Shown here: positions 15,612 through 61,446 of the stretch, in pieces
Numbering within the stretch: the first letter of the stretch is position 1
Layout: each line of letters begins with the position of its first letter
Source of the DNA: Eledone cirrhosa
Taxonomy: Eukaryota
Length of the DNA stretch: 64,000 bases
Assembly: GCA_964016885.1 (NCBI GenBank)
Contig: OZ024740.1
Location: 83,576,001-83,640,000, forward strand
Direction of reading: 5' to 3'
Program-made: the position numbers and the translations under genes
Notes under the pieces: model-generated
What the model was told of the DNA's origin: nothing
Databases searched by the model: none
What the model saw: the letters and a program-made list of their open reading frames with translations, nothing else

Positions 15612-15927
15612 ATAAAGGAAATGAATACAAAGATTTTAAAACCGTTAAAACATGTTTATATAATTGTGCACCTACGTACGTTTCGCCCTGAGCGTGGTAT
15701 CAAGGGTATGGAGAGCAAAATAATGTTCAATATAGAACCCGGGAGGGAATTTACGGTTAAATTAACATCATCATTCATTTTCCCCTCTGCATGTGTTTTT
15801 ATTATCACAGAGCATTATTTTGCTTTCCATCCCCTTGATAAAGCCGCTCAGGGCGAAACGTACGTAGGCGCACTATTATATAAACATGTTTTAACGGTTT
15901 TAAACTCTTTGTATTCATTTCCTTTAT
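15612..15927. repeat. Fold-back inverted repeat (arms about 15612-15729 and 15810-15927), PLE terminal-repeat-like
   Basis: ATAAAGGAAATGAATACAAAGA... mirrored by ...TCTTTGTATTCATTTCCTTTAT; abuts (TA)n on the left. Confidence 0.9.
15831..15870 (+). ncRNA. Minimal type I hammerhead motif, U3:A8 core variant
   Basis: CC-TTGATAA-A-GCC-gctcag-GGC-GAAAC-gtac-GTA-GG; palindromic ACGTACGT in stem III; stem I weak. Confidence 0.55.
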
Positions 15928-16111
15928 AACCGCTCTGCTTATTTTTTCTCGCCCACTAAATATTGACGCCTCTAATATTTAACCCTGTAGGCACGAGTAT
16001 TGAGCACATATGCATGCATAAACTATTGCCAACTAAATATATGTATCGACCATCTTTCAAATTCTCTTCTCTCTCTCGATACCTAATCATTCTATATATA
16101 TATATATATTA

Positions 16112-16298
16112 GGGAAGTGGATTGGCAGTATCGGTAGAGGGTCGGACGCCATGCTTTGCAGCACAGTTATGTCCCTTTACGGACTGAGTTCAAAACCCGC
16201 CGAGGTTAACTTTGCCCTTCATCCTTAAGGGGTCGATAAAATAAAGTACAAGTAATACACTGGGATAATTGCTGGCCTTGTGCCAAAAGTAGAAACAT
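16112..16298 (+). mobile_element. tRNA-derived SINE (octopod-type; central CCTTTCATCCTT-GGGGTCGATAAAATAAAGTACCAG resembles the Meta domain)
   Basis: A-box-like TGGCAGTATCGG, B-box-like GAGTTCAAA; about 12 copies in the window. Confidence 0.85.
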
Positions 16299-17409
16299 AT
16301 ATATATTAGTTTCAGAAGATCCCGTTAAGGGTGAAAGCATCAATTTTTGCTTAAACTTTAATCTGTTATTTTAATAAATATTTGCTCTACGGTTTTTATA
16401 TATTCTTATATATATATATTATCCTATCGAGCTCTCTTCGGATTTTAGTCTTCACATTTATTATTATTACAATGGATATATATATATATATAAATTCTTG
16501 TCGATACCGATTAGCAAGCTTTCTGGATTTTACTCTATATGCATAAGTTTATATATTTAGATGGGAATAATCTATGTGGTTTATATTCTGCAATTCAAAC
16601 AAATTATATTTAGATTATATGGATACCCAAGGGTATATCAGGGAGAAAATTGGAATGATGTTAGCAGCTTCGTCAGCTCGAAAATGCTTCTAAATATATA
16701 TCGTATTATCTTTAAGTTATTTGCATAATAAAGACATCTGTCATAGATATACATGGATTCATTTCATATTCAAATGTTGACTTAAATTGTTTAATATTTG
16801 AATAATTTCGTATATATCAATATAAATGTATAAGTGGTCCGCTCAAGAAAGCTTAGGTTACAATACACTAACATTCAGAAAATAGAATATTGTAGACAAT
16901 AAAACCTGCGGCTCAATAGCTGACTATATAAAAACGTTGGGCACTGACTCATTAACTGCTTAATGACCAACCACAAGGATATGGTCCGAACGGGGAAAAG
17001 GCCGAACTCCCACTGGCATCGCCTACATCTCTCTCGCCCTCCCCATCTCTCTCTATGGTGAGCAAATGAGGGCCCACGTGCTGGCCTCCCCACAGCCCCG
17101 GTGGACAGAGTGGAGAAGGCGTTTCCCCGGTAGTAGCAACGCTCACTACAATCCCAACACTAATATATATATGTATGTATATATATATATATATATTCAT
17201 ATATATAAATATATATATATATATACCCCCACACGCATCACACACTTGCACGACTTGTTTCATTTTATTTTTTTACCTTCTTTTTAATATTTTTCCTTCC
17301 CCAATTTTCTTTTTGCCCTTCCCTTCTACCCCCCCCCACCCCCCATTTTAATGTATTTCCACCACTCCCCCTCACACCCTCGGAACTCTTTTCCTTCCCC
17401 ACTTTTCTC

Positions 17410-17438
17410 CTGTTGAAGGGATTATGTCCGAAACGTCA
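17410..17438 (+). ncRNA. Degenerate hammerhead remnant
   Basis: CTGTTGA-AG-GGA-ttatg-TCC-GAAACGTCA; A6 mutated and stem I partner lost. Confidence 0.4.
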
Positions 17439-57423: not shown

Positions 57424-58739
57424 TCCGAGGGTTCTTAACCCCACTATCGGGCTAAATAATTTCTTTAATTTCTTTAGTCATAATATATATATATATGTAT
57501 GTATATATTTATATATATGTGTGTGTGTGTGTGCGTGTGTGTGTGTGTGTGTGTGTGTGTGTGTGTGTGTGTGTGTGTGTGTGTGTGTGTGTGTGTGTGT
57601 GTGTGTGTGTGTGTGTGTCTATGTGTGTACATGTGTGAGTGTTTTAGCTGTGTAACAACATTTACACAACGTTCACGGTTCGAAACACACGATACTGTTA
57701 CGAGATCCGTTTCGTTTGTGTTCTATTCCAGAGTTATGTATGTAGTGTGCAGAGTGTAAATATAATTAAGAGTCCAAGTCAGTGTCGCAGCATATGTAGA
57801 AACGTTATTTGGATATTACAATTGTTTTGATATCGATCAGCTCAAGGAAAAATGAGGGGAGGGTACCCGACTCTTTTTCGACATCTCAACTGATATGCGA
57901 GCTTATATGTGCAAAGGCACATCCAAACTGTTGACAGATGTCCCGAGATCCGTTTATATACAGTTAAAAGCGGTTTTATGGGGAGTGAAGTAGGTTTAGG
58001 TTTAGAGGGTTGGGTATAAAGATGTCAAACTGACACTGGTGTTTTTTGTTGTTGTTGTTGTTGATTGTCGGCTCTAATACGAATGCAACTAGAATGACTA
58101 CCATCACACAACGAACTACCATTGGACAACTAAAGCCTCTTGCTGCAGCCACACACTTAGCATCGATTGTAAACACTACTTTTAATGACCATTAGGACTG
58201 TTGATTTTCTTGGCGTTCATGCCGATACACAATGCTATTCATATTAGTAAAACAGACCTCTTCGACCTTATCTTTACTATCATCCCACCTATATTTTCAA
58301 ACATATTCATTAATTTTTACCTTTATTTTATTTTATTTTATTTTATCTATTATCATTATAACCATCATGACCATTGTCATAGATATTATTATTATTCTAA
58401 GGTACTATCCATAAATATAACGACAACCTATCTCCCCTACAATTACAGTACTAAGTTCTTTAATGTAAGCCTAAATCAGAACCGCCACCTCTGAAAAAAG
58501 CGCTTGGAAAGAACTGAAAGAAAAATTCTCCAAATATCCACTCGCCGTCGAAACGGTAAGAGCTCAGCTGTCTAGCCATAACGCATCATTACAACACACA
58601 CACACACACACACACACACACACACACACACACACACACACACACACACACACACACACACACACACACACACACACACACACACACACACACACACGTG
58701 CGCGCGCGCATATATATACATATATATATTCACAGACAG

Positions 58740-61200
58740 ATGGACTGGGACCACGTCATGAACACCAACATGGTAGCCGCCACCTCCATATACACCGACA
58801 CCGGCCCACAAACCAGCTGCGCGTCACACCTCGTCACCGACTTAACCTGTACACTCTCAAATGAGGATCTAGAACTTCTACGCTTCGGGTCCAAATTCAC
58901 CGTCTCAGAACGATTCGACGACAGATTAAGCCTCGACATAGAAGCCAACTCTGCCGAGCCACTTACCCAATGAAATGGATTGCCGCCATAAACTGTACCC
59001 CCGAAAATAACAACACCCTAACAACCCACCCCAAGTTCCCCACATACCATCTCCACAACCTACTTCAGCCCCCACCTGCCAACCATTAACTCGATATAAA
59101 ACTCTTGAGGTTGGAACACTCTATCTCCGACATACTATATAATAAACACACACGCACACACTCAACAGACAACCTCACTGGATCACAAATCACCGCTCTC
59201 ACGAACCTGAAATCGAGGTACCTTATTTATCTCACCTTTGCCAAAAGGTAAGGAATTCTGCGTCATCACTGTGGAGATTTATAAAAACCTAGGTCTACAA
59301 CACCTTAACGACGACAGACTCTATTCCAAAGTCACAGTTATCACCGCCACAAGAATCGAGGAACAGATCAACACAAAATAGACCAACATCTGCGACTGGT
59401 GGATATTCCCGAAGAGACTGAATCACAATCTCGTTACGAGGAACAGTAGGTTACCCACCTTCTATCACCTCATCAACACCAAGGAGCCGACCTGAAAATC
59501 AGATCCACCGTATCCAGGGTGGGAGGACCACTTTACAATATCTCATTGTTCCTATCCGGGACACAGAATCACTTGCTGAGCACCTTACCGGGACATGTCA
59601 ACAGTTCCGAGGAGATAATGGTCCTACTATAGCAAATGGAGCCGGACACCCGGTGGGATAACAGGTATGCCTTCAAAGTTAATGTAGTCGCTCTATAGAC
59701 ATCAGTTCCAGTACTCCCAGCCGTCGATATATTGACAGAATGAATAGTATCTACCAGCCTACATTGCTTCGGTCTCACCTCCTTCGACATCAACCACATC
59801 CTATTTGTTGTCGTCAACAACACTTATTTCGACTTTCTTGGCCACACATACCAGCAGACCTCAGGGCTACCCATTAAATCAAGTCTATTAGCTATGCTGG
59901 CGATTTCGTACATGGACCTGCTAAAGCGCAGAGCGCTTAATATCTACAACCCTCATGACTTCTTCTCAAGATATGTGGATGATATCCTTATCCTCACATC
60001 CTCCCGACAAAAGGCTGACGAGATTTACGAGGTGTTCAAAAAGATGGACGAGAACATCGACTTCAGTATAGAGCACCCCAGCGACGACGGGTCCCTTGCT
60101 CTCCTTGATTTCCGCCGTAACATCATGGAACACGAAGGGATCCCCACAAACTTCTACCTCCAGGCGACCTGCAGGGACCTGTTCGTTCACTCCAAGTCTG
60201 CTCTTCCTGAGAGTGTGAAAAGGGGATACATCACAAACCAGACCAAGTGTATAAGAGACAGATGATCCCGTAAGTGGTGCCACCCTCGCCAAGCAATTCC
60301 ACAAGGTGCTGCTAGCCAACGGATATCTAGCATCTTTCACCACCTGAATGAGGGATCTCAGGTACAGGATGCAAGTAAACATGAGGGATATATGCATCCT
60401 CAAGATCCCATCCCTGGACGAGAAAACCACAAACTTTATCCGCAGAGCCATACGAAGAGAGGATCTTGACATCCAGTTGCAACCCTGAGGAGACCCCCCC
60501 CCCCCCAGAAAAACTCGTCAATACAGCGGAAATACACCAATTTCCCGAAACGCTACATAAACTGTTTCTTGAGCACATACGTCGTGTACAAGACTGAATG
60601 CGACAGGTGCAACGAAATTTATATTGGCAGCACTATCCAACCGCTTCATATACGTACTAAGTGTTACGTCCGCATCAAAACCTAATCCTTCCGGAAACAA
60701 TCACAATACACTAACTATCACAGTGATAGCAGCAGAGGTTAACGTTGACAATCTAAGGGTGAAGGAAGCTTTCTGGATAAATCAATTAGAGCCTCCAATA
60801 AACAGAAGATCGGAGAGAGTCGGACACACACACAGAGTTGGAACAACAATATCTCTAACGACCTTTCGTTTACCCCGCTCATTAAAGAAAACAAAAACAG
60901 AACGTACAGCCACGCATGCGCGAGCCCAACGAATAACGTTATTATTTTCCCTTTGGTAGATGCGAATCCGAAATATAGGGACTAATCAATCATTTAAAGT
61001 GCACATTGTATCATTCTTCTTCTTTTTCCTCTTTTCTCATTACGCCTGCTACGCTTATTTGCGTTGTTTTCCTTTTATTTCTCCTATTGCAACTGGATTT
61101 CGTTGCCAGATGATTTATCCACCTACATTGTAGAGGCTTCCAAACTGACTATTTTCCTTATTCCACAATGCTTGAAGCAAACCTGAACACTATTTCGTAT
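58740..61200 (+). mobile_element. Degenerate near-full-length Penelope-like element
   Basis: LSNEDLELLRFGSKF, NVVALY, YQQTSGLP, FSRYVDDILIL, LRVKEAFWINQLEPPINR; stops and frameshifts; (CA)n and (TA)n flanks. Confidence 0.85.
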
Positions 61201-61245
61201 ATATATATATATATATATATATATATATATATATATATATATATA

Positions 61246-61446
61246 TAGGAACCAGTAAGACCCCGACGGCTGAGCTCAAGCCGTTTCGACGGCTAATTCT
61301 GGACTGAGTCCAGAATTAGGCGTCGCATGGCTTGAGCTCAGCCGTCGGGGTCTTACTGGTTCCTATTACCCACTCTACTACCCTAAGTATTGAGTACTTT
61401 GGTGCGTTATGGTCCACTTGGTTCCTTACCACATTTCCTTCGTTAT
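61246..61446 (+). repeat. Fold-back element (centre 61306) inside (TA)n, containing a hammerhead-like 3' half
   Basis: About 60-bp arms; minus strand GTC-GAAAC-GGCT-tgagctc-AGCC-GTC-GGGG. Confidence 0.85.

Follow-up and report, generated by a model that had tools for sequence, protein, structure and literature searches.

Fold-back Penelope-like elements in (TA)n tracts of Eledone cirrhosa: junction evidence for a probable origin from two internally primed cDNAs joined head-to-head

How does a retroelement come to lie in a genome as two copies of one terminal segment, set head-to-head, with their 3′ ends pointing outward into (TA)n tracts? The question is raised by a 64,000-nt stretch of chromosome C1 in the 3.0-Gb genome of Eledone cirrhosa (G000:C1:83576001-83640000; hereafter the window), for which an earlier note had claimed eleven inverted repeats bearing hammerhead ribozyme (HHR) motifs. 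Self-BLAST followed by sequence reading located all eleven, and self-BLAST revealed a twelfth that was missing from the earlier list (Table 1; elements are named by their approximate position in kb, and L-numbers are genomic loci outside the window that were read for comparison). The description of them as coming from mostly unrelated families stands for about nine families and not eleven, as some elements share one: by self-BLAST, 29.9 and 47.1 (93% identity) make up family f47, which is about 72% like element 39.9 (f39), and 49.3 and 61.2 (86%) make up f61; elements 17.5 and 52.0 represent f17 and f52. We consider it probable that these fold-backs are insertions of several families of Penelope-like elements (PLEs), in which both ends of a TA-rich break primed separate, internally started cDNAs that became joined head-to-head.

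The PLE origin that had been supposed for the fold-backs is borne out by an open reading frame (ORF) in element 39.9 that encodes reverse transcriptase (RT) and a GIY-YIG endonuclease (EN; RVT_1 E=7e-7, GIY-YIG E=1e-6), by a GIY-YIG fragment in element 52.0, and by related RT ORFs in long copies (parents) of f47, f52 and f61, the families for which parent ORFs were sought. The ORF of element 39.9 has a C-X4-C-X2-C linker and, as read by eye, a CCHH pattern in EN, and the Neptune and Nematis clades are defined by a CX2-5CxxC linker before GIY-YIG and CCHH in EN (PMC8557442), so that its motifs point to a Neptune/Nematis type. Other traits of endonuclease-bearing (EN+) PLEs are also present: an inverted 5′-truncated copy at the 5′ end or partial tandems (39.9, 52.0, L238), a tail on one side (with L015 and L248 as two-tailed exceptions), and a pseudo-long terminal repeat (pLTR) with a type I (minimal) hammerhead whose core is predicted from sequence. 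Exact-pattern counts over the genome gave 3,236 tailed ends for f47, 5,566 arms for f52, 19,014 matches for f61, 10,767 for f39 and 4,014 for f17. The f47 parent (L237:2311-5570(-), L238:3753-6181(+)) has two overlapping ORFs, the first of 455 aa and the second, in the -1 frame, encoding RT; both copies contain the slippery heptamer U UUU UUA, which makes a programmed frameshift likely; a frameshifted ORF1 is known for PLEs (PMC8557442 Fig. 1). Further broken PLE ORFs, not tied to the listed fold-backs, lie at 59744-60265 and 61805-63851 of the window (RT; GIY-YIG with a C-x-C type linker).

The shared polarity and the association with (TA)n that the earlier note had described both held. The 3′ ends point outward in 10 of the 11 elements as scored with orienting seeds, five of them placed by hand (four doubtful HHR matches were kept out of the seed library), and element 49.3 was oriented through its match to 61.2. 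Among neighbouring matches no more than 6 kb apart on chromosome C1, taken from the first 100 listed matches to each of four family patterns, 68 pairs were outward, 5 inward and 6 on the same strand (p=3e-15); the inward pairs that were read (L123, L196/197) have (TA)n between the arms, i.e., they are two separate insertions. One end lies within 4 nt of (TA)5 in ten elements and at 15 nt in element 43.8, where the background of (TA)5 within 10 nt is 2.2% in the window and 3.2% in an 800-kb sample of 80 evenly placed 10-kb stretches; the opposite end lies 14-165 nt from (TA)5 in 10 of 11, the offset being the tail. The fold-back layout is genome-wide, and the 800-kb sample holds many further arm-arm-tail palindromes in (TA)n from families absent from the window (e.g., L062:1398-1521, L095:546-668, L087:3254-3578, L091:6223-6356). 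Within the window, these (TA)n tracts also contain stacked ends from other PLE families, which form nested clusters (18514-18900, 28557-28590, 31396-31470, 47583-47665). A target-site duplication would be hidden by the (TA)n. Did the tracts precede the insertions? In 172 flank groups with at least three paralogs, one flank being compared, the paralogs were without a TA tract in 27, mostly with one in 106 and mixed in 39, a result for which several causes are possible. At L007, L283, L212 and other loci, the (TA)n beside PLE ends abuts the interior of long or short interspersed elements (LINEs/SINEs) whose paralogs have no TA tract there; such tracts may have been made or expanded with the insertion, or else may be truncated ends of other elements.

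The earlier note had reverse transcription prime on RNA 3′ ends, and the outer ends of the arms do not support this. Each family has two fixed internal positions, 40-95 nt from each other, at which its arms terminate, as a rule with one for each arm: +196/+229 in f47 (30 loci; tail measured as 40 nt), +60/+139 in f61, +151/+212 in f39, and about 57 nt apart in f52, with fold-backs nearly always having one of each. The parent continues beyond the tail into its ORF, and the ribozyme cut falls well inside the arm and coincides with neither end point, which argues that priming was internal. At the tail-less end the element itself has 3-7 nt of matching TA-type sequence (by eye), raw reads contain (TA)n loose ends at the family end points, and the f47 tail-less end was also found in contigs under two other species labels. 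Internal initiation by a purified PLE in vitro (PMC11167929) agrees with such end points, and double priming at internal sites, rather than at the RNA 3′ end, strikes us as quite probable. By eye, the tails of unrelated families share a short GAGT-purine-C core motif (window 17858-17945, 44050-44121, 61364-61443; L118, L121), possibly a common protein-binding hairpin.

That both cut ends prime and that the cDNAs are joined head-to-head, as had been proposed, is supported by the fact that either arm can be the longer and the tail is confined to one arm. At the 15 of 30 f47 loci where fold-backs were scored, the tail-less arm was more than 10 nt deeper in six, the tailed arm in two, and the arms were about equal in seven; in f39 also either arm can be longer. 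A copy of the tailed cDNA cannot exceed it in length, which argues against the snap-back of a single cDNA, and a copy of the tail-less cDNA cannot acquire a tail. The apexes of f47, classed by eye in the first 100 of 508 copies, were TGATCA in 68, AGATCA in 18 (102 genome-wide), TGATCT in 11, TGATCC in 3 and AGATCT in none, the outcome expected from two cDNAs ending in TGATC or TGATCT that anneal through GATC. In 64 f47 fixed-apex copies (L026, with its apex unlocated, and L076, a duplicate of the window copy, were dropped), 17 single-copy and 4 shared variants were mirrored in both arms; singletons were left-only in 33 cases and right-only in 30, and shared variants were left-only in 0 and right-only in 3. 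As a weak check, two Illumina runs contained 8 and 11 raw reads, respectively, with an opposite-strand joint at the f47 GATC. The two fixed end points of each family, the freedom of either arm to be longer and the mirrored variants are thus what lead us to two cDNAs from both cut ends.

Several observations weigh against this account. The three right-only variants are each common to two copies, and later arm-to-arm conversion could produce part of the mirroring; the raw-read joint derives from 2-3 start points; and elements such as L015 and L248 are tailed at both ends. Only about 6 of 30 loci in an unbiased f47 set have the fixed apex, many copies being solo or long, and the left arm was short at 5 of 35 apex-pattern loci. 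In vitro, moreover, priming took place at a site without homology to the cut DNA, and the two strands shared their starts (PMC11167929); steps involving TA microhomology and one start per end thus reach further than that work.

A further question is "What determines where the two cDNAs meet?" The earlier note had them join at truncated 5′ ends; the head-to-head junctions stand, although truncation is not only random: four to five families have a large share of their inner ends at a single predicted start of a promoter. Both f47 arms begin at +0 to +4 in about 6 of the 30 unbiased loci, and the parent has two CCAAT motifs, CATAAAAA at -32 and an initiator-like +1, the predicted start being L238:8276. 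The inner ends of f61 fold-backs lie mostly at -6 to +6, with TATTTAAA at -29 and a start point, predicted at L109:5157, inside loop II of the parent's ribozyme; the junctions differ by several bases between copies, and contig depth rises about ninefold at the pile-up in one sequencing run. In f39 the start, at about 43581 of the window, was predicted from TATAAAA before the loci were read, and 17 of 30 loci (pairs entered twice) then proved to begin at -1 to +10, solo copies included. In f52 and f17 the inner ends cluster, as judged by eye, at what we take to be a YY1-like and an initiator-like motif, respectively (about 12 of 30 each). Directly before +1 there is an excess of G (48 G vs 8 A in f61; 46 G, 33 T and 21 A in f39), and an extra G is what a cap would leave, as in L1, so that the excess is suggestive of a capped start. 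We lean towards a start-site apex as predicted from these motifs. Neither start-site apexes nor twin priming in PLEs were found in the titles and abstract openings of the literature that were searched.

Could the pile-up have another source? Even with double priming true, the shared inner end could instead be a splice acceptor, a site of RNA processing or a strong RT stop: the pile-up comes after AG in f39, f47 and f61, f17 has a tract of pyrimidines, an intron near the ribozyme is known from PLE pLTRs (PMC4209133, PMC2377424), and the f61 point falls within ribozyme loop II. For the extra G, a template exists in the partner arm or in a sense copy in at least 8 of 20 f61 and 4 of 21 f39 cases, and three f39 cases are plain substitutions, which together account for a third to half of the 41 cases read (all of them G cases); the large depth step, from restriction-site-associated DNA (RAD), may reflect a restriction site; and the start site is itself a prediction from genomic sequence rather than RNA. 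We nevertheless judge such sources unlikely, since three families, of which two are unrelated, have TATA-like boxes at -29 to -32, AG is retained in the copies, the f17 ends lie upstream of its AG, and G is in excess at -1. The remaining alternatives deny double priming altogether. Inverted repeats beside TA resemble Tc1/mariner MITEs (miniature inverted-repeat transposable elements), and palindromes can be library artefacts, but TA-targeting DNA-transposon MITEs or assembly fold-backs are scarcely credible for elements that are tailed on one side, share identity with the ends of RT/GIY-YIG elements, have aged arms (75-90% identity) and unique flanks, and recur with the same ends in further runs, contigs with other species labels among them. 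We also rejected a DNA-transposon MITE on its symmetric terminal inverted repeats, one end here reaching 40-95 nt past the repeat.

If palindromic master copies were transcribed and copied whole, as a retro-MITE family, the apex would be inherited and not re-made. The apex and spacing common to 508 f47 copies fit this, as do the 30 best f47 matches, which are 99% identical end to end, and we had at first read f47 as such a whole-unit family from a match ranking that favoured full-length matches; the unbiased 30-locus set altered that reading. Whole-unit copying is quite improbable given that the three main apex classes are each present on both arm haplotypes, that there are no shared left-only variants and no AGATCT apex in 100 although TGATCT parents should yield it, that solo copies begin at the same point while f61 junctions vary by several bases, and that the palindromes are without the upstream promoter motifs. 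A single cDNA that snapped back and was copied to a TA microhomology, the second arm being templated by the first with no second priming, would account for variants being mirrored, for perfect palindromes and for the TA match seen at the end without a tail, and it may lie behind a subset of copies; as the general route we give it little chance, because the tail-less arm is deeper in 6 of the 15 scored f47 loci and in the window's 39.9 element, and because a TGATCT apex with a right-hand tail (11 of 100) is impossible from a single cDNA.

If, then, two internally primed cDNAs are taken as the origin of the fold-backs, a GIY-YIG/RT protein, possibly a dimer, would cut both strands, and each end of the break in TA-rich DNA would prime its own cDNA, with the start at either of two internal positions on the element's RNA, where short TA motifs would help to position at least the tail-less end. 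The cDNAs would stop through truncation or by run-off at the RNA 5′ end and would then anneal via microhomology (GATC in f47) or be end-joined. The pile-up would mark the start site of the pLTR's own promoter, and any pLTR that retains the promoter would make a short RNA to be copied in trans into a MITE-like palindrome that, without the upstream promoter, is probably a dead end. Such seeding of palindromes by short pLTR transcripts is likely because the inner ends pile up at the predicted start, the 508 single-apex copies included. We give an even chance to the broader proposal that PLE integration is intrinsically twin-primed, with a dimer copying two RNAs from two internal starts into both ends of a single cut, that every pLTR promoter in the genome yields short capped RNAs on account of the internal priming, and that run-off cDNAs from these RNAs fuse at the start to give promoter-defined retro-palindromes, which would number tens of thousands over several PLE clades here, look like MITEs, map PLE starts in DNA and perhaps create or lengthen (TA)n.

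What part does the ribozyme play? The earlier note had assigned a hammerhead, or part of one, to each element. One arm or both hold an intact core in six of the eleven, as judged by descriptor and reading (15.6 and 39.9, both the U3-A8 variant, 17.5, 52.0, 54.8 and 56.0); in the other five it is changed, partial or vestigial, with GAAA changed to GCAA in 29.9 and 47.1 and likewise in their parent L238, the 3′ part only in 49.3 and 61.2 (long f61 copies have an intact U3-A8 core), and a vestige in 43.8. Our type I descriptor, which permits C3-G8 or U3-A8 and misses a stem II longer than 31 nt and half-ribozymes, matched 55 times in the 800-kb sample vs 1, 2 and 1 times in three shuffles, which scales up to an estimated 2x10^5 or so motifs genome-wide; a stricter first descriptor gave a single match. 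Rfam found no hammerhead in the window, only microRNA-model hairpin matches below gathering scores, and by folding z-scores the HHR motifs were no more stable than shuffles. The ribozyme appears to be a passenger, incidental to the fold-backs. Family f47 has amplified recently (copies 99% identical) though GAAA is replaced by GCAA throughout, and because of this its core suggests that cleavage is dispensable in vivo.

The account differs from L1 twin priming, in which both target ends prime cDNA and the products join by microhomology but annealing of the second primer, on the same RNA, takes place far upstream and a different segment is inverted; in our elements the two cDNAs are copies of one and the same terminal segment, and a palindrome results. 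Among PLEs the parallels are closer. Published EN+ PLEs (Neptune, Nematis, Penelope/Poseidon, Naiad, Hydra; PMC8557442, PMC3846280) likewise have an inverted 5′-truncated copy, a tail at one end, a preference for (TA)n, RT plus GIY-YIG, an HHR in the pLTR and an optional frameshifted ORF1, by a mechanism called undefined in PMC8557442; their tails are 30-40 bp vs 40-95 nt here, and our elements differ in being mostly pLTR-only copies, a large share of which start at one point per family. Inverted pLTRs with tails, as well as TATA and initiator-like motifs in a pLTR, have been described (PMC3846280), and the Penelope promoter was located in the pLTR (PMC2377424). Dual minimal HHRs of Schistosoma PLEs form opposite-strand pairs 100-700 bp apart with the U3-A8 variant, as here, polarity, tails, apex position and mechanism being outside that analysis in the part drawn on (PMC4209133). 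Purified PAc, a Poseidon element of Anolis, is predicted to be dimeric; it cuts both strands and extends them, RT starting at two internal points that delimit the tail, with ribozyme cleavage dispensable; it primes without target homology, whereas our tail-less ends match short TA runs, and its results text does not derive the inverted structure from the reaction (PMC11167929). Non-LTR retrozymes are also short HHR-bearing pLTR derivatives of PLEs mobilised in trans (bioRxiv 10.64898/2026.07.22.740005), but they form tandem arrays and ours are head-to-head palindromes at dispersed positions, whose ribozyme is often dead or reduced to a half; we rejected a retrozyme with its head-to-tail HHR array on the 68 head-to-head, 5 tail-to-tail and 6 same-strand neighbours. 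The parts drawn on of that preprint, PMC13282606 and PMC9977147 contain nothing on fold-backs. Of the microsatellite-targeted double-priming mode that had been proposed for many families, the (TA)n link, the double priming and the many families remain; it was overstated in that the layout, the bias towards (TA)n and ribozyme pairs on opposite strands have been published (PMC8557442, PMC3846280, PMC4209133), and the ribozyme appears incidental. The pattern is real and its layout already known, and what the junctions add bears on mechanism.

Table 1. Fold-back elements of the window and their parts (window positions; the repeat span is the inverted repeat proper)
Element	Feature	Position	Strand	Repeat span	Details
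15.6	Old PLE fold-back	15612..15927		15612-15927	Arms ~80% alike; (TA)n left, tail-like extension right
	Hammerhead, U3-A8	15833-15866 (near)	+		Intact; A9 broken in left arm
17.5	f17 PLE pLTR fold-back	17541..17945		17541-17857	Tail ~88 nt; (TA)n both sides
	f17 intact HHR	17756-17800	+
29.9	f47 fold-back, unequal arms	29866..31317		29899-31317	Tail on left arm, 29866-29898; right arm with CCAAT, TATA-like box and predicted start
39.9	f39 5′-truncated PLE	39825..43729		39886-43729	Inverted 730-bp copy at 5′ end; 61-nt tail on short left arm
	f39 intact U3-A8 HHR	39966-39995	-
	PLE ORF remnant	40615..42561	+		RT, then C-terminal GIY-YIG; Neptune/Nematis-type linker
	f39 predicted pLTR promoter	43551..43581	+		TATAAAA, ~30 nt upstream of the A at which 5′ ends of the family accumulate; approximate position
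43.8	Fold-back	43769..44121		43769-44049	Arms ~75% alike; vestigial HHR; ~72-nt tail right
47.1	f47 430-bp fixed-apex palindrome	47112..47541		47112-47501	195-nt arms; GATC apex at predicted +1; 40-nt tail right; (TA)n both sides; apex and spacing common to 508 genomic copies
	Further (twelfth) fold-back	47665..47995		47665-47995	Same family as HHR at 48246
49.3	Short f61 fold-back	49323..49477		49415-49477	Tail left; stem III part of HHR only; apex away from predicted start
52.0	f52 5′-truncated PLE	52045..53459		52106-53459	Partial tandem on -, inverted right arm, 61-nt tail left; GIY-YIG fragment at 52539-52946; - strand HHRs at 52307 and 52995
54.8	Compound tandem/inverted pLTR array	54809..55989		54809-55989	HHRs on - at 55057 and on + at 55694
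56.0	1.1-kb fold-back	56137..57250		56137-57250	Arms 95% alike; long-stem-II HHR in both
61.2	Short f61 fold-back	61248..61443		61248-61363	Both arms begin at predicted +1, plus one additional base pair in the centre; 80-nt tail right; (TA)n both sides; 3′ half of HHR only

The window holds other repeats as well. Two more short palindromes, without a recognised ribozyme, lie at 49907-49962 and 57360-57428. A 180-bp SINE-like repeat has about ten copies (16116-16308, 21522-21726, 24288-24470, 24927-25310, 28291-28452, 38529-39187, 44889-45089, 51545-51721), with a tandem pair at 24927-25306, and broken RT fragments of non-LTR retrotransposons (RVT_1, zf-RVT, DUF6451) occupy 1291-3949 and 45501-46444.

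The origin of the tandem and inverted structures of PLEs is called an open question in PMC8557442, and this genome has thousands of near-identical products whose junctions discriminate between models. The same products supply exact substrates for the existing in vitro assay, namely the two starts, the GATC apex and the predicted start site. If our account is true, the published two-start biochemistry would be linked to the inverted architecture, and a large repeat class, which could be entered as MITEs by annotation tools, would be accounted for. The genome would also have been seeded with perfect hairpins, a potential source of double-stranded RNA.

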